A stretch of 64,000 nucleotides of DNA from a virus, in IMG/VR virus record IMGVR_UViG_3300020048_000023, positions 32,001-96,000 of that record, one strand, 5' to 3'. Position 1 is the first letter of the stretch; the number at the start of each line of letters is the position of its first letter. A program made the position numbers and the translations under genes. Shown here in pieces: positions 3,567 to 46,986 of this stretch. The notes beneath the pieces are model-generated. The model saw nothing but the letters and a program-made list of their open reading frames with translations. It had not been told where the DNA came from and did not search any database.

Positions 3567-4692
3567 AAGATTAAGAATCAAACAGGTTATTTATTACAAT
3601 AACCCAACCCTATTTTGCGTGGGTAAAGAAGGGCAAAAACGAGTATATGATAAAACATATGGAAAATACCTTGCGTATTCGTCTGGGCAGCAACAAAAAA
3701 CTACCCGCGTAAACGAGGTGTGTGAATTGCTTGGTATACCACTTGCGGATTTTGTGTTTTACTACAATGAAAAGCACAAGCAAGCGTCAAAAGGTATTTC
3801 ACAAGACCCGAGGCACGTAGAGGCTATGACACGTGGGTATATGAATGTAACCACTAATAATATTAAACGGGAAAGTCCACTTAATATTAGTACTATGTTT
3901 CCAATACACCCATTATTGGTTGAATCCATCGATGATTTAATTGCCGTAGGTCACGGGGTAAGGGAAAAAAGTTTTACCCTTATACAGGAAAAGAAAAAGA
4001 CCAAAAAAGCTGGCGAGGATGATGATGAATCAGAAAAATCAGACGGCTCAAAGACAGAAGGTAAGTACGAAGAGGTTCCAAAAACAACCGATGAATACAA
4101 AAAATTTCTCGACGAAATGGCTGATACTCGAAAAAAAGGTATAGAACATAGTTTAGCTGGTGGTAAATTATTAACCCGTGGGGTGTTCGAAAGATATATT
4201 GAAATTGACCTAACCAGATTGTTCGCATTTAACAATGATATCTTACTTCCGAGCAAAGAGATTGCCGCTGAATATATGGACGCGATCATTAAGGACGGGT
4301 GGAAAGAAGTAGACACCAAATTGTATGGTAAAATGTTTATCGTACCAAAGTCAATACGCGATAAATATATCCCTGCAATTGCCGAAGCTCTGGTTATGGC
4401 TCTTCCAAACACTAATCAGTCCAGTTCATACTCAGTAGGCGAAATAGTTGCTACGGCGGTTAGTTATGACGCCTCGGAAAATTCATATGCAATTGTGTGC
4501 GAAGAAAATAATGAAACCGCTAATGTTATATTAGACAAGGATGCTGGTTCCAAATTATTCATCACGCCTATTGCCAAAAGTAGCAGGATATTCGCAGGGT
4601 ACGACCGTGAATCAGCTACCTCAAAGGCTAATAAAGAAGCCATTGCGTATATAACTCAGGAATTGCTAAACTTCGACTACGAGGGTATATAA
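3553..4692 (+). CDS. cas7: Cas7 backbone subunit (start re-called to ATG 3553)
   Basis: TLFCV..GQKRVYD..YSSGQQ.K, GYM..IKRESPL and GVFERYIEIDL resemble Bacteroidota type I Cas7; overlaps the cas8 stop; directly precedes the array. Confidence 0.8.
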   Translation: MLNSKRLRIKQVIYYNNPTLFCVGKEGQKRVYDKTYGKYLAYSSGQQQKTTRVNEVCELLGIPLADFVFYYNEKHKQASKGISQDPRHVEAMTRGYMNVTTNNIKRESPLNISTMFPIHPLLVESIDDLIAVGHGVREKSFTLIQEKKKTKKAGEDDDESEKSDGSKTEGKYEEVPKTTDEYKKFLDEMADTRKKGIEHSLAGGKLLTRGVFERYIEIDLTRLFAFNNDILLPSKEIAAEYMDAIIKDGWKEVDTKLYGKMFIVPKSIRDKYIPAIAEALVMALPNTNQSSSYSVGEIVATAVSYDASENSYAIVCEENNETANVILDKDAGSKLFITPIAKSSRIFAGYDRESATSKANKEAIAYITQELLNFDYEGI

Positions 4693-4710
4693 ACGTGAAA
4701 TAAGCCATTT

Positions 4711-4722
4711 TGTTCTTTGACA
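4711..4722 (+). promoter_or_regulatory. boxA-like antitermination element upstream of the CRISPR array
   Basis: TGTTCTTTGACA; the same motif occurs at 6312 (before the tRNAs) and 7685 (inside the tRNA cluster). Confidence 0.6.
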
Positions 4723-4767
4723 AATCTGGTGTAGTAAATTAATGTTTAAGGGGTTACACATAGGTAC

Positions 4768-6025
4768 ACTGTGCGTAACCCCATTCTGTAAGGAAATAAC
4801 AACATAATCGGTACATTTCTCTTAAACAATTGTACTGTGCGTAACCCCATTCTGTAAGGAAATAACAACTAACCATCGGGTTCTCCTTACCGTTCCCAAC
4901 TGTGCGTAACCCCATTCTGTAAGGAAATAGTAATACATATGCGGTTGAGTTTGCATTAGTTTTTATTGCGCATAAACCCATTCTGTAAGGAAATAATAAT
5001 CACTGACCAATTACCAGATCAGTCCAGTTAGAGTAACCCCATTCTGTAAGGAAATAACAACGAGTGATTTAAGGTGCCCGCCTCGAATACGACTGTGTGT
5101 AACCTCATTCTGTAAGGAAATAATAATTATGATAATTGAGCAGAGCCAGAGTCTTATACTGTGTGTAATCCCGTTCTGTAAGGAAATAATAAGTAGTAAA
5201 ATAAATGGCGCAATACCTTAAAAACTGCGCGTAACCCCATTCTGTAAGGAAATAATAATACACAAACGAAGGAGTAACCCATAACGTCAACTGTGTGTAA
5301 CCCTATTCTGTAAGGAAATAACAACATCGAAAAGATCAGGCAAATAGAAGCTTCAATTGTGCATAACCCAATTCTGTAAGGAAATAAAAACTTTTCGAAA
5401 GGGTTAAAGGTGTTGAACTATATGTAACCCTATTCTGTAAGGAAATAACAACTACCGACACCCTCGAACAAAGCTATTACCTACTGTGTGTAACCCTATT
5501 CTGTAAGGAAATAACAACTAATCGAAGTTGAACACATAAGCTCTAAAAACTGTGCATAACCCTATTCTGTAAGGAAATAACAACGACGGAATAATAAACC
5601 TCTGGTTGGAAAAACTGTGTGTAGCCCCATTCTGTAAGGAAATAATAATACATCGCAGGTAATCGCATTGCCAACTGTACGTAACCCTATTCTGTAAGGA
5701 AATAAAAATAGTTGTATTTGCACAGCGCCACAACCAGCAATGTGTGTAGCCCCATTCTGTAAGGAAATAACAATCAGAAACTCATTATGCTATGCTTAGC
5801 TAATATAACCTCATTCTGTAAGGAAATAAAAATAAGGAGCAATTCAAGAAGGTTGACTTAGATACGGTGCGTAACCACATTCTGTAAGGAAATAATAATA
5901 TGTACACCAGTGCAGTATCATCAGTGCACTGCGCATAACCCCATTCTGTAAGGAAATAATAATAATCAACACTTTAACCGAAAGATAAAACCATACATAA
6001 CCCTATTCTGTAAGGAAATTAAAAA
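4768..6025 (+). CRISPR. CRISPR array: 20 repeats of 36 nt (consensus ACTGTGYGTAACCCYATTCTGTAAGGAAATAAYAAY) and 19 spacers of 23-30 nt
   Basis: Repeats start at 4768, 4834, 4899, 4965, 5026, 5092, 5158, 5224, 5290, 5356, 5417, 5483, 5549, 5614, 5674, 5739, 5798, 5864, 5928 and 5990. Invariant core TTCTGTAAGGAAAT; unique spacers. Orientation is inferred from the cas genes and boxA. Confidence 0.97.
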
Positions 6026-6051
6026 TAATTTAAAGTTTTTTTCACAAAAGC

Positions 6052-6082
6052 TTGTTTTATTCAAATATTATGTCTACATTTG
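6052..6082 (+). promoter_or_regulatory. Promoter for the leader peptide / tRNA operon
   Basis: TTG..N..TACATTTG (-7 element at 6075-6082). Confidence 0.75.
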
Positions 6083-6123
6083 CAGCACTTTTTGAAACTA
6101 ACAACTATATATAAGAAAATACA

Positions 6124-6249
6124 ATGAAAAAGATCACCTACATAACCAGTTCCAATAACCTTATTCTGAAAGGAAATAACAATAGTTGTTTGGAAGCATC
6201 GTCAGAGGCGTTAGCCACTACGAATGGAATCGGTATGTACGTGAGGTAA
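6124..6249 (+). CDS. 41-aa putative attenuator leader peptide MKKITYITSSNNLILKGNNNSCLEASSEALATTNGIGMYVR
   Basis: ATG 6124 to TAA 6249, between the promoter and a terminator; contains the antiterminator strand and a run of codons matching the downstream tRNAs. Confidence 0.75.
   Translation: MKKITYITSSNNLILKGNNNSCLEASSEALATTNGIGMYVR
6148..6183 (+). repeat. Isolated degenerate CRISPR repeat inside the leader ORF
   Basis: TAACCTTATTCTGAAAGGAAATAACAAT matches about 25 of the last 28 nt of the array repeat. Confidence 0.85.
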
Positions 6250-6278
6250 AGAATTTTTGATTACCAGAGCTCGATCAG

Positions 6279-6312
6279 CCCGATTCCAAAAGAGTCGGGT
6301 TTTTTGTTTTTT
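6279..6312 (+). terminator. Intrinsic terminator (attenuator) before the tRNA cluster
   Basis: CCCGATTC-CAAAA-GAGTCGGG hairpin followed by TTTTTTGTTTTTT. Confidence 0.85.
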
Positions 6313-6340
6313 GTTCTTTGAATGTCTGGAAAAATATTGT

Positions 6341-6481
6341 GTGCGTCGTGGCGGAATTGGTATACGCGCTTGTCAGTGTACCCTACAAGGCAGGAATTGG
6401 GGAAAACAGGTGGACAACGGAAACTGCATTCCGTGGGCTTTATAGATTAAATCCGCGCTGGTTCGAGTCCAGCCGCGCACA
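6341..6481 (+). ncRNA. tRNA-like RNA with an expanded anticodon arm and a long variable region
   Basis: Leu-type D arm TGGCGGAATTGGTATACGC; T arm GCTGG-TTCGAGT-CCAGC; acceptor GTGCG(T)CG/CGCGCAC; TTGTC/GACAA stem enclosing about 38 nt. Confidence 0.65.
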
Positions 6482-6488
6482 CAAACAT

Positions 6489-6564
6489 GGGTCGTTAGCT
6501 TAGTCTGGCTTAAAGCGTCTGCCTTGCAAGCAGAAGAGCAAGGGTTCGAATCCCTTACGATCCA
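6489..6564 (+). tRNA. tRNA-Ala(TGC)
   Basis: Cloverleaf; TCTGC-CTTGCAA-GCAGA; G3:U70; no encoded CCA. Confidence 0.92.
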
Positions 6565-6593
6565 CAATACCGTCTGGAAATTCCAGACAAAAT

Positions 6594-6663
6594 GGGTCTG
6601 ATCCCGAAGGTAGGGAGCTTCACTTGCAATGAAGACATTTGGGTTCGATTCCCACAGTATCCA
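6594..6663 (+). tRNA. tRNA-Ala(TGC), atypical or possibly pseudo
   Basis: CTTCA-CTTGCAA-TGAAG anticodon arm and TGGG-TTCGATT-CCCA T arm; imperfect acceptor stem. Confidence 0.6.
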
Positions 6664-6668
6664 CAAAC

Positions 6669-6752
6669 GGTGCGTTATACAAGCGGTTCAAAGTAGGCAG
6701 CCCTTCAAGCTGTCCCTGTAAAGGTTCGTGGGTTCGAATCCCACACGCACTA
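6669..6752 (+). tRNA. tRNA-Glu(TTC)-like with C33 and a long variable arm
   Basis: Acceptor GGTGCGT/ACGCACT; GCAGC-CCTTCAA-GCTGT; variable arm CCCTGTAAAGGTTC; canonical T arm. Confidence 0.7.
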
Positions 6753-6963
6753 CACTAATAAAAATCGTCTGGAATTTCCAGACAAATTAAAAAAAGAAAG
6801 GAAATATTATGCTAAAAGCACTAAACACGAAAGGATAGAAAACCGAAAAAAAGAGATCGGAAGCCGAGAAGAAAGAAGGCGGCAAAAACACTCTAATAAG
6901 TTCATTGAAATTTTTAACTTTTTCTTACATTCATACCGCAAAGGAATACTGGATTTCTGCGGT

Positions 6964-7272
6964 ATGGAAGTAAAAGTCACGTACAACGTGAACGGTAAAG
7001 ATGGTATGGTGTCTTTCAAAGAATACGAAAACGGTGTTATGAAGCTGTATAATTTAAGCACGCGGCACCCAAATATATTGAAAGGGGTTATTATCGGTAA
7101 AAAAAGCTGGGGTCTTTGGTTACAGGAATGGACTGACGGAATATCTGAGGGGTCATTCACAACCAGAGAAATCATATCTCAGTTCGATGGTATAAAAATA
7201 CCTGAATCGCTAATGACGGACTTTTATAACGTGTTACATAAAAAAATAATGGCGCGTTCGTCTAGGGGTTAG
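6964..7272 (+). CDS. Hypothetical protein (frame open upstream; 3' end runs into tRNA-Glu)
   Basis: 102-aa ORF in a tRNA spacer. Confidence 0.5.
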   Translation: MEVKVTYNVNGKDGMVSFKEYENGVMKLYNLSTRHPNILKGVIIGKKSWGLWLQEWTDGISEGSFTTREIISQFDGIKIPESLMTDFYNVLHKKIMARSSRG

Positions 7273-7322
7273 GACGTTTGGTTTTCAGCCAAAAGACAGG
7301 GGTTCGATTCCCCTATGCGCTA
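7251..7322 (+). tRNA. tRNA-Glu(TTC)
   Basis: Cloverleaf; TTTGG-TTTTCAG-CCAAA; T arm AGGGG-TTCGATT-CCCCT. Confidence 0.92.
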
Positions 7323-7359
7323 CCTTGAATAAAATCGTCTGGATATTCCAGACAAAACT

Positions 7360-7447
7360 GGAAGATGAAACTGGCGTGGGCTGGTCGCGGTCTTGAAAAC
7401 CGAGGGGACGGGTAAAACTGTCTGGTAATCGTGCTATCCTTCTTCCG
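7360..7447 (+). tRNA. tRNA-Ser(TGA), non-canonical 8/4 fold
   Basis: GCGGT-CTTGAAA-ACCGA; 8-nt acceptor GGAAGATG/CTTCTTCC; 4-bp T stem GGTA-ATCGTGC-TATC; long variable arm; G73. Confidence 0.75.
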
Positions 7448-7499
7448 CTTAGCCGAAACAACTGCGAATATATAAATAAGCGGTTGTTTTGGACAAAAT

Positions 7500-7585
7500 G
7501 GGGCTGTGCTGTAACTGGTAGCCAAGACGGACTTAAAATCCGTTGTGCCGTAAGGCACGTGTGGGTTCGAATCCCACCAGCCCTA
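7500..7585 (+). tRNA. tRNA-Leu(TAA)
   Basis: ACGGA-CTTAAAA-TCCGT; long variable arm; canonical T arm. Confidence 0.93.
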
Positions 7586-7593
7586 CAATAATT

Positions 7594-7679
7594 GGAAGCG
7601 TGGGAGAGTGGTTTAATCCACCAACTTGGAAAGTTGGCAGCCTCGCAAGGGCTCGTAGATTCGAATTCTACCGTTTCCG
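7594..7679 (+). tRNA. tRNA-Ser(GGA)
   Basis: CCAAC-TTGGAAA-GTTGG; long variable arm; G73. Confidence 0.92.
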
Positions 7680-8363
7680 CTAATAGTTCTTTGACATTTT
7701 TATGTTAATAATATTAATAATAATTTGTAGGTATTTGTTGGCTCTATCTGGTTTAAAGTATTTCAAACCAGAAGCATCAACAATACACATTTCAATACCG
7801 CGTTCGATACACGCTTGAAATTTACGTGTATCGTTATTTTGAATTTGAGATAGTTTATCGGTTCCGTAAATGGGCTCATAATGAAATATACCATTCAATT
7901 CAAAAGCCAGTTTAAGTGACGGTATGTAAATATCCAATTCGGAGTTGATTGCGTCTTTTTTGTTGTAGTGTATTTCTAATAACGGAAATTGAATGGGTAA
8001 TTCCTGTTCCAGATAAATTTCGAGTTTTGAACGCCTGTTACCAGTTGTTTTATGCGTATTGTTATACGTAGCCGCGCAGGATTTAGTGCAGAAATCGTTT
8101 CCTTTAGTTGATTTTTGCTGCGAAAGTAGTTTACTAAAATTTTTACCGCAATTAGCACACGTGGTTTGTTTTCTGGTTCTTTCGTATACACCCCAGCATT
8201 TCATTGAGCAAAAATCACCAATATCTAATTTATTAGGATTAAAAACGTCTTGTATTCTCTTTTTAGTTAAATAAAAAGTTTTTTCACATTGTTTACATTG
8301 GCACGGAAGCTTATCATATGATTTTGCCGTACTAAATTCTAATTCGTTAAATAGCGCTTTCAT
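7680..8363 (-). CDS. Putative free-standing homing endonuclease (Zn-finger repeats + PD-(D/E)xK/Vsr-like domain) inserted antisense in the tRNA cluster
   Basis: CxxC..FCSxxC repeats; ELDIYIPSLKLAFELNGIFHY..D..K..C motif; start re-called to ATG 8363. Confidence 0.75.
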   Translation of the reverse strand: MKALFNELEFSTAKSYDKLPCQCKQCEKTFYLTKKRIQDVFNPNKLDIGDFCSMKCWGVYERTRKQTTCANCGKNFSKLLSQQKSTKGNDFCTKSCAATYNNTHKTTGNRRSKLEIYLEQELPIQFPLLEIHYNKKDAINSELDIYIPSLKLAFELNGIFHYEPIYGTDKLSQIQNNDTRKFQACIERGIEMCIVDASGLKYFKPDRANKYLQIIINIINIKMSKNY

Positions 8364-8440
8364 TAATTGTTTTATTATAAATAGTCTTTGGCGGAGCAAA
8401 ATTCGTATTTTCGAAAAATAAACTTACCGCTAAATAAATT

Positions 8441-8524
8441 GCCTTAGTGGGGGAATTGGTTATACCCAGCAGTTTCAAAAACTGCCGCGCTTAGCGCATA
8501 CAGATTCGACTTCTGTCTGAGGCA
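8441..8524 (+). tRNA. tRNA-Leu(CAA)
   Basis: GCAGT-TTCAAAA-ACTGC; long variable arm; acceptor GCCTTAG/CTGAGGC. Confidence 0.9.
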
Positions 8525-8531
8525 CATATAG

Positions 8532-8617
8532 GGAAGGTGAAACCGCCGAGGGGTGGTCGATGCCTGCTAAGCATACGGTACCCGTAAGGGTATGGGAATC
8601 GTGCTCTCCGCCTTCCG
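8532..8617 (+). tRNA. tRNA-Ser(GCT), non-canonical 8/4 fold
   Basis: GATGC-CTGCTAA-GCATA; 8-bp acceptor GGAAGGTG/CGCCTTCC; 4-bp T stem GGGA-ATCGTGC-TCTC. Confidence 0.8.
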
Positions 8618-8625
8618 CAAAAAAT

Positions 8626-8696
8626 GCCGTCTAAGTCAATTGGGTTGGCGCTGGTCTGCAAAACCAGTTTGGTGAGTCCGATTCTCACAGACGGCT
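8626..8696 (+). tRNA. tRNA-Cys(GCA)
   Basis: CTGGT-CTGCAAA-ACCAG; acceptor GCCGTCT/AGACGGC; U73. Confidence 0.88.
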
Positions 8697-8795
8697 CAAA
8701 ATTACCGTTGTAACGGTAACATTTAACAATAAAATTACCTATGGGTAGTTTTAGCTCTAATTCAGAGCTTAATGTTCGCTGTAGCTGGAAATTAC

Positions 8796-9053
8796 TTACT
8801 TTACCTGAGATAGGTAAATAGTGTTATTTGAAAGGTTGACAGTCGTATCATTGTAGGATATGAGCGATACGCGGGCTTGTTTGTTTGGTCGGTATTCAAA
8901 TTTACCGTCCATGTCTGTATATACTGTATTTCCATCCACCTTAACGGCAACGCCGCATAGTGTTTCGTGAGTTATTGCGTCTTTTACCTGATAGGTTTTA
9001 GGTGTGGAGAATAGTTGCAAGATGAATGCGAAAATAACGAATGTCTTTACCAT
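8796..9053 (-). CDS. Small secreted protein with a carboxypeptidase-regulatory-like (TonB receptor N-terminal) domain
   Basis: Hydrophobic signal peptide followed by VKDAITHETLCGVAV..TDMDGKF..VSLISY. Confidence 0.6.
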   Translation of the reverse strand: MVKTFVIFAFILQLFSTPKTYQVKDAITHETLCGVAVKVDGNTVYTDMDGKFEYRPNKQARVSLISYNDTTVNLSNNTIYLSQVK

Positions 9054-9139
9054 ACTTAATGTTTTAAAATAAGTATGAGTTGAATTAAAGAAAGTCTAAC
9101 TTACAGATTAAGTTACTGTTACCTACAGGTTAAATAATT

Positions 9140-9224
9140 GGAAGATTGACCGAGTGGAAAGGTACCCGCCTCGAAAGCGGTGGTCGGGGTAATTCCCGCG
9201 CAGTTTCGATCACTGCATCTTCCG
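9140..9224 (+). tRNA. tRNA-Ser(CGA)
   Basis: CCCGC-CTCGAAA-GCGGT; acceptor GGAAGAT/ATCTTCC; G73; long variable arm. Confidence 0.88.
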
Positions 9225-9281
9225 CAAAATTTTATTTGGTTATTACTATTTTTAGTTTTATATTTGCAAAAAAATATTTAT

Positions 9282-9872
9282 ATGATGGCTCGGGAACCTA
9301 TGAAAACCACTAAAAAGCAAATTGTTGCTTATTGGGTAAATAAAGGTATTGACGAATGTGAGTTAAATTTTGACTGGTCTGAAGCTGATGGTGTGTGCTG
9401 GAATTGCGGGCATTTAACAAAACACGCTCAAAGATGCCATATCATACCTGATATGTTAGGTGGTGAAGATACACCAAGTAATTACGTTTTATTATGTGAA
9501 GAATGTCACGAAGAAGCCCCGAATATAAATAATTCGGAAGCTATGTGGGATTGGATTAAACACAATAAAAACGATTTTGGTATGTATAATACTTATAAAG
9601 CGTTTAAAGCGTTTAAAGCATTTAAAAAACGAAATGGATTTGACTTTTTTGAAAAAGCGATATACATCACAAATTTTGCTGAATTATTTGTTAATGGGTT
9701 TAAAAATATTGGACTGCACGGAGCGAAGCTAACCATTAGTACTTATATATATATGTTTGAAGATATAATAAAAAAAGGTATTTATAGTGATATCCCACAG
9801 AATATTGGTTTTTTTGAAATATCTGATTTAGTAGAAAAGTCAAATTTAGTGAAAAAGGAAGTACCGCAATAA
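9282..9872 (+). CDS. HNH endonuclease (start re-called)
   Basis: CWNCG..RCHIIP..LGG.D..NYVLLCEECH; lies downstream of the promoter at 9235-9266. Confidence 0.85.
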   Translation: MMAREPMKTTKKQIVAYWVNKGIDECELNFDWSEADGVCWNCGHLTKHAQRCHIIPDMLGGEDTPSNYVLLCEECHEEAPNINNSEAMWDWIKHNKNDFGMYNTYKAFKAFKAFKKRNGFDFFEKAIYITNFAELFVNGFKNIGLHGAKLTISTYIYMFEDIIKKGIYSDIPQNIGFFEISDLVEKSNLVKKEVPQ

Positions 9873-27474: not shown

Positions 27475-27695
27475 TCAAACTACCAGACCCGCATATTGCC
27501 GCGATAAAAGTTGTCGCTGTTATAGAGAGTTGCACTACAATGACTCAATTTGAGGCAGCCCGAGAAATGTATCGACGATACAACATATTATTCAGAGGCT
27601 CTTGGGATTGGATTTATAATGATGAATTTCACGAAGCATTAAACGAAAAATACTTATATCTTAAACAAAATGTTGACGTACAAGGGAAAATATAA
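27471..27695 (+). CDS. Hypothetical protein
   Basis: ATGA overlap. Confidence 0.55.
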   Translation: MIKLPDPHIAAIKVVAVIESCTTMTQFEAAREMYRRYNILFRGSWDWIYNDEFHEALNEKYLYLKQNVDVQGKI

Positions 27696-28890
27696 CGAAG
27701 CCGTAGTGTATACGGATAACATCGAAGAAACCGCTGCATCGCAGTTAATCGAATTGTGTAGCCAAGAATTTATGTCTGGCTCCAAAGTTCGTGTTATGCC
27801 TGACGTGCACGCTGGTAAAGGCTGTGTTGTCGGTACTACATTGACCATCGGTGAAAAGATTGTCCCGAACTTAGTCGGCGTGGATATAGGGTGTGGTATG
27901 CATACAGTTAAGCTGGATGTACGTGCTCACGAAATTGACTTGGCTAAACTGGATAAGAATATCAAGAAGTTCGTACCGTTGGGAACCAGCGTGCGTAACG
28001 TGCCGTTCTTAAAGTACTACAACCAGATCAAGGACGAAATGGAATCTATGGCTTCGGCTGCCAATGTGGACTTAGTGCGAGCTAAGTTGAGTATGGGTAG
28101 CTTGGGTGGTGGTAACCACTTCATTGAGCTGGACGTTGACGACGACGGGTACGTGTACCTTGTTATCCATACTGGTAGCCGTAAGGCTGGTACCCAAGTA
28201 TGTGAATTTCACCAAGATTTGGCTTACAAGCTGTTAAAGCAGCGAGGTAAGGAAAAGAGCCAGCTTGTTGATTCGTTGAACTCACAGGGTCGTCAGAAGG
28301 AAATTCAGGCTGAGTTGAAGAAACTTGCGCCAGTTACGAATATCCCAAAAGCTCTGGCTTACTTGGAAGGTGATCAACTGAAGGCTTACCTGAATGATAT
28401 GGGCGTAATGCAGAAGTATGCCGACTTGAACCGTAAGGCTATCGCTGAAACGATTATAGTTGGTATGCGTTGGAAGGCGGTGGCATCGTTCACTACAATC
28501 CATAACTACATTGACTTGGATACTATGATTCTGCGTAAGGGTGCTATCTCAGCTCAGAGCGGTGAACTGGTACTTATCCCAATGAACAATGAAGACGGAT
28601 CGTTGATTTGTACAGGTAAGGGTAACCCAGATTGGAACTTCTCGGCGCCTCACGGTGCTGGTCGTTTAATGAGCCGTTCAAAGGCTAAGGCTTCCTTATC
28701 CTTAGAATTGTACCAGCAGGGGTTGAAGGATGCTGGCGTATACAGTACGACTGCCAACCAATCAACCTTAGACGAATCGAAGCAGGCTTACAAGCCAATC
28801 GACGAAATCATGGCTAACATTGGCGATACCGTAAATATCGTCAAGCGTATCAAACCTATTTTTAACATCAAGGCTGGGGACGAAGATTAA
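27670..28890 (+). CDS. rtcB: RtcB family 3'-phosphate RNA ligase
   Basis: MPDVHAGKG, VGVDIGCG, GSLGGGNHFIE, IHTGSR, HNYI, RKGA, SAPHGAGR. Confidence 0.96.
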   Translation: MLTYKGKYNEAVVYTDNIEETAASQLIELCSQEFMSGSKVRVMPDVHAGKGCVVGTTLTIGEKIVPNLVGVDIGCGMHTVKLDVRAHEIDLAKLDKNIKKFVPLGTSVRNVPFLKYYNQIKDEMESMASAANVDLVRAKLSMGSLGGGNHFIELDVDDDGYVYLVIHTGSRKAGTQVCEFHQDLAYKLLKQRGKEKSQLVDSLNSQGRQKEIQAELKKLAPVTNIPKALAYLEGDQLKAYLNDMGVMQKYADLNRKAIAETIIVGMRWKAVASFTTIHNYIDLDTMILRKGAISAQSGELVLIPMNNEDGSLICTGKGNPDWNFSAPHGAGRLMSRSKAKASLSLELYQQGLKDAGVYSTTANQSTLDESKQAYKPIDEIMANIGDTVNIVKRIKPIFNIKAGDED

Positions 28891-38924: not shown

Positions 38925-38951
38925 TAAGTAATACAAAACAATACGAATGAA
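38194..38951 (+). repeat. 32-bp exact direct repeat (38194-38225 and 38920-38951) flanking two genes
   Basis: AATAATAAGTAATACAAAACAATACGAATGAA at both positions. Confidence 0.9.
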
Positions 38952-40374
38952 AGCAGTTGACCTTGTAACAATCGAGCGGTTTATCCCTATCTTCAAGGAA
39001 GGGGTACCTGCTAACGCCATTGAAGTAGCCCGAGTTAAGGGCTCCGATGGTGAGTCCATACAGTACGATATTGTCGTAGGTAAGGGACTACATCAAATTG
39101 GGGGTCAGGGTATTTATATCCAGCCCGACTACACTATTCCATTGAACGAACTGTTCTTGGAGTACCACGCACCGTTCGGCGAGCCTAAAAATAGCCGCTT
39201 GGGTAAGAAGGGTCGTGTCCGTGCCATAAAGTTTAACCTGAGCTTTGAGAACTCCACTGAGCCTATCTATAGCAATGGTATTCTGGTGCCGTGGAGCAAC
39301 TTTCTTGACTGGTTTTCCGCAGAATTGGATAAAGAAGGTAGTGCTATTAGAGATATAGAATTTCCTATGAATGATGCTATGTATACCCATCCAAGTACTG
39401 ACGTTGATGTAATGCGTACTAATTTTTTATACGACATTAATTTTAACCACCCTGAGTTTCCTTGGATGGAATTAATAGGTGTGGAGAAATACGTTGCCGA
39501 CGACAATCTGGAAGGTAGCCAGCCGAAGGGTATGACCGAACGTGAGTTTCCGTCGTTCCTGTACAAGACTGACGAGGAAACCATTCAGAACCACCGCAGG
39601 GCAGTTGACCGATGCTACGCCGACGAAGAGGTACTGGCTTTCACACAGAAGCGTGACGGTTCCAGTATTACAGAGTACTGTCGTATTAATCCTATTGCCG
39701 ACGAGTCACTATTGACAGAATACGAATTTGGCATCTGCTCCCGTAAATGGGAAAAGAAACTTGACCAGCAATACGTTGCTGGATACAAGGATGGGGAAGT
39801 TGTTCTGCACAAATATTTTCACCCAGAGCTTAAAATCAGGGGTTGGATGAACGACCAGAGCCGCGACTTCTATACCGAAGCCGAAGCAGCTGAAAAGTTC
39901 GAGCCAGTTATGGAAATTCAGAAGGACGCTTGGATTGATACCGATAAGAAATTCGGGTACCTTGCTAAACTTATAGAATTCTGTAAAAAGTATGAACGGC
40001 AACTGTGTATGCGCGGCGAGCTTATAGGCGCTGGCAACAAGGGTAGCGGTAATAAGCTTAATTCTGACGCACGAACCGAATCCCACGTGGTATGGTTCGG
40101 GGTTGACGATCTGAGCCAAGGCTTCTCTCGACGCATTCATTATGGTCAGGAACACAATCTTGAAACCATATGCGAAGAGCTTGGCTTCGAATATACCAAG
40201 GAGTTATTTAGCGGGGTATTCAGCTATGACGAGATAATCGCCAAGGCTCACGAATACTTTAAAAAGGTGAAGGACGAAACTGGTATTATAGTTGAAGGCG
40301 TGGTTATACGTACCAAGTACAGCAATAACCTATCCGTCAAATATATCAACCCAGAATATGATGCCAAATCCTAA
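38947..40374 (+). CDS. ATP-dependent RNA ligase (DRB0094/Rnl2-like)
   Basis: N-terminal I..ANAIEVA; KTDEE.IQN; motif I TQKRDGSSIT; RGELIG; EGVVIR; KYINPEY. Confidence 0.9.
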   Translation: MKAVDLVTIERFIPIFKEGVPANAIEVARVKGSDGESIQYDIVVGKGLHQIGGQGIYIQPDYTIPLNELFLEYHAPFGEPKNSRLGKKGRVRAIKFNLSFENSTEPIYSNGILVPWSNFLDWFSAELDKEGSAIRDIEFPMNDAMYTHPSTDVDVMRTNFLYDINFNHPEFPWMELIGVEKYVADDNLEGSQPKGMTEREFPSFLYKTDEETIQNHRRAVDRCYADEEVLAFTQKRDGSSITEYCRINPIADESLLTEYEFGICSRKWEKKLDQQYVAGYKDGEVVLHKYFHPELKIRGWMNDQSRDFYTEAEAAEKFEPVMEIQKDAWIDTDKKFGYLAKLIEFCKKYERQLCMRGELIGAGNKGSGNKLNSDARTESHVVWFGVDDLSQGFSRRIHYGQEHNLETICEELGFEYTKELFSGVFSYDEIIAKAHEYFKKVKDETGIIVEGVVIRTKYSNNLSVKYINPEYDAKS

Positions 40375-44745: not shown

Positions 44746-46986
44746 ATGAAAAATCACGTTAAAATCGATGCGAAGTTCTATTTAACCACTCAGGTTGTAT
44801 CGAACGACAAGACCGTTCAGGTCGCAAAAAAAATCAACCACATTTTCATTGTGGATGTATCAGGCTCAATGTCTGGTGAATTATCCCAAATCAGGCGACA
44901 GTTGAAAAACAACCTTTCGAACATTATGAACGAAGGGGACACTATCACTATTATCTGGTTCTCGGGAAGAAACGATTGCGGTATTCTAAAGGAAGAAGTT
45001 GAGGTGAAATCGCTGAAAACTTTGGAAGACCTTAATAATGCAATCGACCGTTGGCTTAAACCAATTGGTCTTACAGCGTTCTGCAAACCGCTAACGTTGA
45101 CAAAAGAAGTAATTGACAGGATTAAGAAAAACAGACCTGACAGCGTTTTCTCAATGGTATTCCTTACCGATGGGTACAACAACGACTGTTCCTACGAATC
45201 TGTGCTAACAACACTGAAGAGTCTGGAAAATGACCTTGCATCTGCTTGTTTCGTTGAATACGGCTACTATGCTGACTCGCAAAGACTGACCCAGATGGCT
45301 TCCGTCGTTGGCGGCGAGAAGATATCTGCCAGTAGCTTCGAAGAATTTGAACCATTTTTCAACAAAAGGATTTCATCCCCGTTGATGGGTGGCAAAAAGG
45401 TTGTCGTTGAGATTACTGACCCATTCTTGTACGACTTTGCGTACTCAGTTACCCCAGATGGCGGTGTTATCTTGTATGACATTCAAAAGGGGGAACACGG
45501 GTGCTCAGTGATGGTGGGTGGCGACGTGAAAGAGATTTATTTCTTTTCACCTGACGCCATTGGAACTGAAAATAAGCCAGAAACGGCGCTATATGCTGCC
45601 GTGTATGTCCTTGCGGACAAACTGAAGAATGACGATGCAGAGAAGATTTTCTACGTACTCGGTGATCAACACTATTACCTTGAACTATTGAAAGCCTTCG
45701 GCAAACAGAAGCTTAATGCTTTTAAAGCCAACATCAAAGAATGCGTGGGCGATCTTGCCAAAAGGTATCCTGATGGACAAGCCGCAATTTCGAAGGTACC
45801 AGATGATGCATACTGCCTGATGAACCTGATCTATGATCTGGGCTCTATCGACGGTTGCTTATTCTTCCCGAGCCACCCAGACTTCGTGTATAACCGCATC
45901 GGTCGTAAACGCGTTCAAAAAGGCGACAATCTGTCAGACGACGACCAGAAACGGTTAGCCGAGGCAAAAGACGTTAAGGGAGCTCAGGCTATCTTAGCTG
46001 AACTTGCTGAGAAGAATGTCGAGCTTAAATTCACGTCAAGCGGGGATAAGGGTTCACCTTTAACCAGCCTTGTGTGGAACGAAGAACGTGCCAACCTGTC
46101 AGTACTTGTACGCACCGAAGGCACCGTTGAGGTACCAGACAACCAGTGGGGAGTAAAAATTGTACCTACATTTAAGTACAACAACTACACCCTGATCAAG
46201 GATGGTATTGTCAACGTTGAAAAGCTTCCGCTGTCCTATACAGAAGAGCTGAAAAAGATCGTTGTGGAAAAAGGTTTGAATGCCAAGATTATCGACGGAT
46301 TCATTGTCCTTGACCTCAGCAGCCTGCCTATCGTTAACAAAGCTATGGTGAAAGCCCTGTCTGCCGATGCATTAGCAAAGCAGGAGTGGGAATTACTGAA
46401 GCTCCAAGGCGATAAAAAGGTTTACGATTACTACCGTAAACAACTGTTCCCGAAAGAAAGCACCACTTTCATCGAAGATTATGGCGCTGATGCCGCTGCT
46501 TGGTTAAAAGAGATTGGCATCACCGACTATAACGGGTTCTCACCGAAGACCGAAGCTGTTGAGTCTACTGACTTTTATATGTCGGTTCGCTTGGCTACCA
46601 AGATCAAAGGTTTGTCCTCGTTGCCTAAGGTGGAAGACGTTGCCGTAAAATTGGCTGCTGGTACTACTTTAAAAACTGGCGAATGGCTCTTGAAGTCGGC
46701 GCTGGAAGAGTACAACAACCAACTGGTATCACCGTTGTTTGTATCGTTGACCCCTGAACAGCAATTAGCCACATTACAGGCTTATCTGATCAGCAAGAGC
46801 AACGACCTGAATTACAAAAAACGCAAAATTATGCAGGAACTTGCGCAGATTAAATTTGCGCTCATTCTCTCGAAAAAATGGTTCACAGAATTCAATACAT
46901 TCGACGAGAATAAGTTAACCCTGACGTTAGACGGATTCCCACTTGAGTTCACCTTCGACCTGTTCGAAAAGGAAGAAAAAATCTAA
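44746..46986 (+). CDS. vWA-domain protein
   Basis: MIDAS motif VDVSGSM..T..FLTDG. Confidence 0.88.
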   Translation: MKNHVKIDAKFYLTTQVVSNDKTVQVAKKINHIFIVDVSGSMSGELSQIRRQLKNNLSNIMNEGDTITIIWFSGRNDCGILKEEVEVKSLKTLEDLNNAIDRWLKPIGLTAFCKPLTLTKEVIDRIKKNRPDSVFSMVFLTDGYNNDCSYESVLTTLKSLENDLASACFVEYGYYADSQRLTQMASVVGGEKISASSFEEFEPFFNKRISSPLMGGKKVVVEITDPFLYDFAYSVTPDGGVILYDIQKGEHGCSVMVGGDVKEIYFFSPDAIGTENKPETALYAAVYVLADKLKNDDAEKIFYVLGDQHYYLELLKAFGKQKLNAFKANIKECVGDLAKRYPDGQAAISKVPDDAYCLMNLIYDLGSIDGCLFFPSHPDFVYNRIGRKRVQKGDNLSDDDQKRLAEAKDVKGAQAILAELAEKNVELKFTSSGDKGSPLTSLVWNEERANLSVLVRTEGTVEVPDNQWGVKIVPTFKYNNYTLIKDGIVNVEKLPLSYTEELKKIVVEKGLNAKIIDGFIVLDLSSLPIVNKAMVKALSADALAKQEWELLKLQGDKKVYDYYRKQLFPKESTTFIEDYGADAAAWLKEIGITDYNGFSPKTEAVESTDFYMSVRLATKIKGLSSLPKVEDVAVKLAAGTTLKTGEWLLKSALEEYNNQLVSPLFVSLTPEQQLATLQAYLISKSNDLNYKKRKIMQELAQIKFALILSKKWFTEFNTFDENKLTLTLDGFPLEFTFDLFEKEEKI

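Follow-up and report, generated by a model that had tools for sequence, protein, structure and literature searches.

A candidate leader-peptide attenuator written in the codons of the tRNA genes that follow it in a large freshwater phage

In the multivalent attenuators ilvL (of ilvGMEDA) and thrL, and along the same lines in trpL, hisL, leuL and pheL, a short translated leader with a run of codons, for several amino acids in the multivalent cases, is followed by a terminator that stands before the genes. The ilv and thr types rely on mutually exclusive RNA pairings (1:2, 2:3 and 3:4) and on a stop codon that lets a ribosome finishing the leader mask the antiterminator. In the pheM leader of pheST, leader-peptide attenuation controls a gene of the translation apparatus, a synthetase, through single-amino-acid codons and the level of charged tRNA. 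The status of tRNA is likewise sensed through a terminator/antiterminator switch in T-box riboswitches, and CreTA modules of type I CRISPR-Cas systems join a degenerate mini-CRISPR to a mini-ORF (open reading frame) that sequesters tRNA. Here we describe a cassette with the layout of the multivalent leaders that stands before a cluster of tRNA genes in a phage. It lies in a 64,000-nt stretch (the window, to which positions refer unless marked as genome) that comprises bases 32001-96000 of the 160,910-bp IMG/VR virus record IMGVR_UViG_3300020048_000023.

We consider it probable, on the strength of the comparisons given below, that this cassette is a ribosome-mediated (leader-peptide) transcription attenuator that gates the phage tRNA operon and is tuned to individual isoacceptors. 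As the leader is written in codons of the tRNAs behind it, the tRNA block is probably transcribed only when those codons are decoded slowly. Transcription would start a few bases past the box at 6075-6082, whose TAnnTTTG motif we take to be the -7 consensus of Bacteroidota promoters, and the leader (6124-6249) would be translated while RNA polymerase moves on. The sensor (6148-6153 together with 6184-6213) would draw on codons of the downstream tRNAs, one codon per tRNA gene. With fast decoding, the ribosome at the stop codon would cover the 3' part of 6224-6242, the hairpin 6277-6301 would form and transcription would end in the T tract. Slow decoding of any sensor codon, for want of charged cognate tRNA of host or phage origin, would stall the ribosome upstream and leave 6224-6242 free to pair with the emerging 5' arm of the terminator; the polymerase would then read through, past the boxA-like element at 6313-6321, into the tRNA genes. 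Without translation, 6134-6154 would sequester 6225-6246, so that termination would be the default. The outcome would be that tRNA supply feeds back on tRNA synthesis, isoacceptor by isoacceptor.

Most of the parts that such a mechanism calls for are in place. A leader ORF with its own start codon lies directly 5' of the tRNA block, an intrinsic terminator (6277-6312) separates the two, and on the + strand from 4400 to 9600 this terminator is the sole convincing one, the other match (7259) falling inside a tRNA-Glu gene. An antiterminator that excludes the terminator and can be masked by a ribosome at the stop codon is predicted in silico. The regulatory codons correspond to the product of the regulated genes, which here is tRNA itself. 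A preliminary description, made from the letters of the window, had already pointed to the promoter, the 41-codon ORF, the terminator, boxA and the tRNA cluster, and all are present where it placed them; the perfect reverse complementarity of 6225-6233 to 6280-6288 that it claimed is there as well, and its reading of the ten codons (6184-6213) and of TCC (6151-6153) is correct.

Under strict wobble rules the eleven tRNA genes of the block read 14 codons, which make up 20% of the record's triplets. No other cognate run in any of the six frames of the 160.9-kb record is as long as that of the ten sensor codons (the next has 8 codons; 0.04 such runs are expected), and these codons map one-to-one onto ten of the eleven tRNA genes (P=0.0047 given ten covered codons). 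Resampling synonymous codons while keeping the peptide of the leader at 6124-6249 gives P=0.0076. The codon match claimed in the preliminary description is thus beyond chance. Its remark that Ala and Glu codons occur twice, as their genes do, also describes the sequence correctly, but a meaning in terms of copy number may be incidental: the relative in run X3 keeps the Ala and Glu codons, and its contig skips the stretch in which the class II Glu gene and the second copy of the Ala gene lie.

The genome holds three cassettes, each with a ACTATATATAA-type motif, a leader, a terminator and boxA GTTCTTTRA. The motif ACTATATATWA has four copies in the record, three of which sit 8-12 nt ahead of a leader ATG (genome 9637, 15727 and 38124). 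There are also three tRNA clusters (genome 9830-10594, 17243-25379 and 38341-41225), the third of which is the one behind the leader at 6124-6249. In leader 1, a stretch of 12 consecutive Arg/Leu(CUN)/Gln codons covers every one of the nine anticodons of cluster 1 and is longer than any other run of its kind in the record; 15 of the 19 core codons of leader 2 are for the Tyr/Trp/Gly/Pro/Thr/Asp tRNAs of cluster 2. In the matrix of three leaders against three clusters, both the covered codons (14/6/5, 5/17/8 and 3/9/12) and the longest runs (12/3/2, 1/7/1 and 1/2/10) peak on the diagonal, and the true assignment of leaders to clusters ranks first of the six permutations. Synonymous codon choice follows the isoacceptors in two leaders, since resampling is significant for leader 1 (P=0.016) and leader 3 (P=0.0076), and not significant for leader 2. 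For Leu, leader 1 uses CUN and leader 3 UUR codons, in agreement with the tRNAs that follow each leader.

The preliminary description had proposed that leader codons in related phages be compared with the anticodons downstream of them, and this comparison came out in its favor. A marker protein (44746-46986) led to 20 IMG/VR contigs at 56-64% identity, eight of which were examined, five of them 327-365 kb long and rated 100% complete; six non-redundant relatives (130-365 kb) were tested. Each examined relative has 34-65 tRNA matches, and the relatives as a group carry 30-65 tRNA genes. These genes are sorted unlike those of this genome, yet a short ORF and a terminator, often with boxA, still stand ahead of each block. 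The cassettes of the relatives are of four types: a His/Gln/Pro-rich leader before a Pro-His-Gln block, a Val/Leu/Asp/Ala/Glu/Trp leader before an Asp-Glu-Val-Leu-Ala-Trp block, a Tyr/Lys leader before a Lys-Tyr block, and a Ser/Thr/Ile/Asn/Gly/Phe/Cys/Arg leader before a Thr/Cys/Asn/Ile/Ser/Phe/Gly/Arg block. The true assignment of leaders to blocks ranks first of 24 permutations in all six relatives, and binomial P values for single leaders, set against the codon usage of long ORFs, go down to 3e-8. The leaders also keep step with the placement of Gln, which in this genome shares a cluster with Arg and Leu and in the relatives goes into one block with Pro and His. The tail and terminator of our cassette resemble those of the relatives' Lys/Tyr cassette, with an entirely different sensor part, which points to a common origin followed by exchange of sensor codons.

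That an unrelated small ORF and the terminator of the preceding CRISPR locus merely happen to stand ahead of tRNA genes is, in the light of these comparisons, hardly credible. A 64-kb stretch does offer many patterns to pick from. However, the expected number of one-to-one-matching runs in the whole record is about 2e-4, and the recurrence of the match in two paralogues and six other genomes refutes coincidence as far as statistics can.

The switch itself was examined in 27 cassettes, the three of this genome and 24 of the relatives, with complementarity tested against 1000 shuffles. In every one the terminator begins 19-38 nt past the stop codon, and in 26 of the 27 the last part of the ORF shows complementarity to the 5' arm of the terminator at P<=0.05 (in 20 at P<=0.01). 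Counted from the first base of the stop codon, the end of the complementary segment lies anywhere between 37 nt upstream and 8 nt downstream. ORF tails pair better with their own arm (mean -15.2 kcal/mol) than with the arms of other families (-10.0 kcal/mol), own being the better in 26 of 27, and both strands change together between and within families, for example GAATGGGG/CCCCATTC versus GAACGGGG/CCCCGTTC. In the present cassette the duplex of 6224-6242 with the terminator 5' arm has -16.4 kcal/mol (P=0.032), as against -9.2 kcal/mol for other families' arms. The minimum free energy (MFE) structure of the naked leader (6088-6320) consists of the helix 6134-6154/6225-6246 and the terminator, and is more structured than shuffles (z=-2.8). 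In these predicted folds, the pairings of this cassette are the 1:2, 2:3 and 3:4 of a classical attenuator.

The conserved complementarity also bears on the proposal that the leader senses decoding speed but that its output is Rho-type polarity, or decay of the untranslated tRNA precursor, with no hairpin switch. The boxA-like element directly past the terminator would fit this, as by analogy with rrn operons it points to a need for protection against Rho. Such an output leaves the match between ORF tail and terminator arm, with both strands changing, unexplained, and we regard it as quite improbable.

Conservation of the reading frame in orthologues adds to the case for attenuation. The Logan contig L385 (5775-5879, - strand) encodes a 34-codon leader with the same N-terminus and tail and the same tRNA set behind it, and between N-terminus and tail it has 17 consecutive Leu/Ala/Ser/Cys/Glu codons. 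In L386, a contig-end fragment, the visible 3' part of the leader shares the frame and stop codon. All length differences between the window, L385 and X3 are multiples of 3, and among the changes listed for the sensor run of X3 and of X7, a near-identical phage from a 2025 lake sample, there is only TGT>TGC, which leaves the same tRNA-Cys. Together with the co-variation and the complementarity in 26 of 27 cassettes, this frame conservation supports the attenuator reading that had been put forward, as far as comparison of sequences goes. Searches beyond these contigs gave little: an exact 25-mer of the sensor run had no match in IMG/VR, a leader-peptide search returned only the leader itself, and the 'phages' collection held only tRNA-level DNA matches and distant protein relatives (about 33% identity).

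A soil-metagenome contig (X9) matches the promoter side (6022-6144) and the terminator/boxA side (6288-6475) of the cassette, and where the window has the 143-nt stretch of sensor and antiterminator (6145-6287) it carries 123 nt of other sequence; this may be a cassette whose sensor differs. A putative Ala-GGC tRNA in L385 proved to be a low-threshold artefact, namely the orthologue of the Ser-GGA gene.

This copy of the leader differs from its orthologues in carrying a piece of CRISPR repeat. A type I CRISPR-Cas locus lies upstream of the cassette, and leader segment 6154-6183 is a 21st, degenerate copy of its array repeat; the ten sensor codons are the 30 nt that follow it. Comparison with L385 shows the fragment to have gone in cleanly and in frame, as 30 nt between TCC (6151-6153) and AGT (6184-6186). 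Because AGT TCC is contiguous with the run in the insert-free L385, the older sensor run comprised 12 codons, including the TCC at 6151-6153 that the preliminary description had set apart from the ten. The insert is absent from L385 and X3, which are also without the array: L385 has neither insert nor repeat copy, and X3 leaves out 27 nt between 6145 and 6183 and has no array beside its cassette, since its sequence differs upstream of 6036. In X7, the array end (5900-5988) matches exactly and none of the deletions of X3 occur. By this comparison the insert appears to accompany the adjacent array, this phage and (from the absence of the X3 deletions) X7 having both and X3 neither. The insertion is either a by-product of the array's neighborhood or a Cas6 handle on the leader. 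The fragment keeps a small hairpin, its loop changed from GTAA to GAAA (both GNRA), and the 8-nt handle part.

With a repeat copy 120 nt past a type I array, Cas6 encoded upstream and the 30 nt behind the repeat matching one spacer length, the element might instead be a degenerate mini-CRISPR, made up of pseudo-repeat, 30-nt pseudo-spacer and terminator and acting as a CreA/CreR-like guide or a Cas6 decoy, the ORF and its codon match being incidental. This is very improbable. There is no second pseudo-repeat downstream of the run (the best repeat match is 15/36, where shuffles average 15.4), and for the 32 nt used as query the genome holds no target above chance level (20/32 for the best non-self match, where shuffled queries reach 20-21). 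Orthologues without the repeat keep the ORF, the sensor codons and the switch, two paralogous cassettes and 24 in relatives do without it, and sensor codons of the run also stand on the 5' side of the insert. On these grounds we rejected a CreA/CreR-type guide RNA with a lone pseudo-repeat, together with the view that the 30 nt after the repeat are a spacer, the run being uninterrupted in L385.

Several observations weigh against the attenuator reading, in part because of this insert. Folding with the ribosome footprint masked still gives the 1:2 helix and the terminator, and not the antiterminator, as the MFE structure. At -18.5 kcal/mol, the antiterminator has no advantage in stability over the terminator together with a small hairpin (-20.0 kcal/mol), and therefore the choice of the switch would have to be kinetic. 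The insert places region 1 about 30 nt upstream of the run, beyond the footprint of a ribosome stalled at 6184-6213; having been moved away by these 30 nt, region 1 would not be covered by a single stalled ribosome. Leader 2 matches its cluster less well than the other two do theirs (P=0.02 for the whole leader), three of the eleven tRNAs are non-canonical (Ala-UGC at 6594-6663, Ser-UGA and Ser-GCU), and two antisense ORFs interrupt the tRNA block. Finally, the reading assumes that the presumed host couples transcription to translation, and the host itself is deduced from just the promoter motif.

The folding result, together with the lack of the insertion in L385 and X3, would suit a variant in which the cassette type works in relatives but this copy, its run split and its region 1 displaced, is crippled and acts mainly as a leaky constitutive terminator. 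We think this unlikely, as the insertion is exactly in frame and the frame, stop codon, antiterminator, terminator and boxA are intact; the deletions that account for the missing insert in X3 are not seen in the near-identical X7. A second ribosome queued about 30 nt behind the first would, moreover, cover region 1. An attenuator in this copy may work less well than in the insert-free orthologues, or may need such a queued ribosome.

Table 1. Features of the attenuator cassette, the tRNA block behind it and the CRISPR-Cas locus upstream; positions are those of the window unless marked as genome.
Feature	Position	Strand	Basis or remark
Cas6	genome 30734-31420		upstream of cassette
Cas3, HD and helicase domains	1-2163
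CRISPR array, 20 repeats, period ~66 nt	4766-6035
Promoter -7 box TAcaTTTG (TAnnTTTG type)	6075-6082	+	read from sequence; kept in orthologue L385
Conserved motif ACTATATATAA of the 5' untranslated region	6104-6114	+	4 copies in 160.9-kb record
Leader ORF, 41 codons plus stop (ATG 6124, TAA 6247-6249)	6124-6249	+	ORF reading
Region 1 (putative anti-antiterminator), pairing with 6225-6246 absent a ribosome	6134-6154	+	MFE of 6088-6320
AGT TCC, 5' remainder of the sensor run (codons for Ser-GCU, Ser-GGA)	6148-6153	+	contiguous with run in L385
CRISPR-repeat fragment, 30 nt, in-frame insert (hairpin plus 8-nt handle part)	6154-6183	+
Sensor run of ten codons, each read by a tRNA from a separate gene of the block	6184-6213	+
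Predicted antiterminator strand, core 6225-6233, ending 5 nt ahead of stop codon	6224-6242	+
Intrinsic terminator, 10-bp stem (6277-6286/6292-6301), 5-nt loop, T tract to 6312	6277-6312	+	-15.2 kcal/mol
boxA-like GTTCTTTGA	6313-6321	+	same spot after all three attenuators of the genome and after many in relatives
tRNA-like RNA with large insert, conserved; first gene of operon	6341-6475	+
tRNA-Ala(UGC)	6489-6565	+	ARAGORN, Rfam
tRNA-Ala(UGC), second copy	6594-6663	+	Rfam 36.9 bits; ARAGORN at lower threshold
tRNA, anticodon UUC (Glu), long variable arm	6669-6753	+	ARAGORN, Rfam, cloverleaf fold
tRNA-Glu(UUC)	7251-7324	+	ARAGORN, Rfam
tRNA-Ser(UGA), non-canonical T loop	7360-7446	+	tRNA-Sec model 29.5 bits, below cut-off; cloverleaf fold
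tRNA-Leu(UAA)	7500-7586	+	ARAGORN, Rfam
tRNA-Ser(GGA)	7594-7680	+	ARAGORN, Rfam
tRNA-Leu(CAA)	8441-8525	+	ARAGORN
tRNA-Ser(GCU), non-canonical T loop	8530-8618	+	cloverleaf fold only
tRNA-Cys(GCA)	8626-8697	+	ARAGORN, Rfam
tRNA-Ser(CGA)	9140-9225	+	ARAGORN

The block behind the leader (Table 1) holds the eleven tRNA genes of the preliminary description, a set borne out by ARAGORN, which calls eight, by Rfam, by folds and by L386. The set holds because the Ser-UGA and Ser-GCU genes are called by default ARAGORN in the corresponding cluster of L386; at the corresponding place, the Ser-UGA gene is also called in L385 and the Ser-GCU gene in L383. The order of neighboring tRNA genes, judged without alignment, suggests that the L386 genes are orthologues of those in the window. 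We infer that a single transcript covers all eleven genes to 9225, since the sole other + strand terminator match lies within a tRNA gene and the leader contains codons of the distal tRNAs. The first gene of the operon, the tRNA-like RNA at 6341-6475, is kept in L385 and L386, fits no Rfam family and is not called by ARAGORN in intron mode.

A number of the RNAs are unusual in themselves. The tRNA-Ser genes at 7360-7446 and 8530-8618 fold as class II cloverleaves and have the T loop AUCGUGC, with the T54/A58 pair apparently swapped to A54/U58, and these two genes escape default gene finders. The tRNA at 6669-6753 has the Glu anticodon UUC but a class II shape and A73, and L386 likewise holds a long (87-nt) Glu-UUC gene. 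Further tRNA-like RNAs, with acceptor stem, T arm and large structured inserts, occur at genome 17126-17233 and 23030-23118, and within tRNA cluster 2 (genome 18629-18702; L344:3130-3203) there is a match to Y RNA-like RNA (YrlA; 39.7 bits, below cut-off) in which an acceptor and D-arm-like part comes after a T arm. A 17-nt palindrome of the GTCTGGAAATTCCAGAC type stands three times between tRNA genes (6572-6588, 6767-6783 and 7338-7354), and the latter two copies read as - strand intrinsic terminators that may keep antisense transcription out of the operon. At the end of the tRNA region, five non-redundant relatives (G001-G005, e.g. L372 and L369) have a tRNA with anticodon CUA, of the amber suppressor type; ARAGORN also finds it in G006, a near-duplicate of G001, and not in G008. 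This tRNA hints at TAG recoding in the phage group.

The record is 67% complete according to CheckV, and the best DNA match of this giant phage is an aquatic metagenome; we call the phage freshwater. Within the CRISPR-Cas locus, Cas3 is followed by two ORFs without family and then by the array. One related cas-plus-array metagenome element (L163, identical to L188) has ordinary genes after its array, not a leader and tRNAs. In L188:1069-8510 the gene order is the same and ORF sizes suggest cas6-cas5-cas3-cas8-cas7 plus array, families not having been checked; its repeat has the 3' 21 nt in common with that of this phage and a different 5' half, and in both arrays the 5' half varies between copies. 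A 17-mer of the repeat found no array in IMG/VR or in genomes, a 14-base repeat pattern gave chance matches only, and the Cas7-like protein had no relatives in IMG/VR by the search method used. One array spacer (5062-5091) resembles the anticodon arm of the phage's own tRNA-Ser(CGA) gene (9159-9175), being similar, not identical, with 16/17 over the core. The phage also encodes an RtcB-type tRNA ligase (27670-28890; PHROG E=1e-130) and an RNA ligase (38947-40374), which together make up a tRNA repair kit alongside the putative tRNA attenuators.

The preliminary description saw in the leader a sensor of tRNA damage. Cleavage of tRNA by host nucleases is a plausible trigger, and plain feedback between supply and demand fits equally well. 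Going further is a tentative matter. The cassettes could form a regulon that gauges decoding capacity per isoacceptor; they could serve counter-defence, damage by an anticodon nuclease calling up the matching replacement tRNA block alongside the RtcB and RNA-ligase repair genes; and the in-frame CRISPR repeat could make the leader a binding or cleavage site for Cas6 and so tie CRISPR expression to tRNA supply. We hold these ideas to be possible but doubtful.

Why large phages carry many tRNA genes, and how the expression of these genes is timed, is an open issue to which the cassettes speak. If the attenuator reading is true, the phage reads the decoding capacity of the cell directly and makes each tRNA block on demand, and a testable prediction follows for the depletion of host tRNAs and for anticodon-nuclease defence. 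Textbook attenuation would be extended to a new target, tRNA genes, to sensing per isoacceptor with product feedback, and to viruses. The leaders could then serve as compact natural reporters of single-tRNA availability, and in annotation their codon content can predict the tRNAs of an operon, including non-canonical ones missed by gene finders. We found no description of leader-peptide control of tRNA genes in the full-text literature, a search that mostly excluded subscription journals, and the attenuator survey we reviewed does not mention tRNA genes.

Among described systems, several share single traits with the phage cassette. T-box riboswitches bind one uncharged tRNA directly, through specifier codon and T-box loop and with no ribosome, unlike the phage leader, and a T-box covariance model has no match at E<=1 in 4500-9500. 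CreTA modules likewise lie beside a type I array and have a degenerate repeat and a small ORF with tRNA-relevant codons; the phage leader has no second pseudo-repeat, target or rare-codon pair, and its repeat is a secondary insertion absent from orthologues. In rRNA operons, with their boxA-dependent antitermination, too, a boxA sequence like GTTCTTTGA heads a long untranslated RNA operon, but the phage element, putative in function, sits behind a regulated terminator. The pheM leader attenuates a translation gene, as the phage cassette would, and differs in its target, a synthetase rather than tRNA genes.

The closest known systems are the multivalent ilv and thr leaders. These regulate biosynthetic enzymes, whereas the phage cassette would regulate tRNAs, and because the regulated genes are tRNAs the product would feed back directly on the sensor. 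Leaders of amino-acid operons repeat codons of one amino acid, whereas the phage codons are chosen per isoacceptor, with about one for each tRNA gene. Additionally, the cassettes are phage-borne, occur several to a genome and are followed by boxA. What is particular to the present copy is the exact one-to-one codon match combined with the in-frame insertion of a CRISPR repeat.

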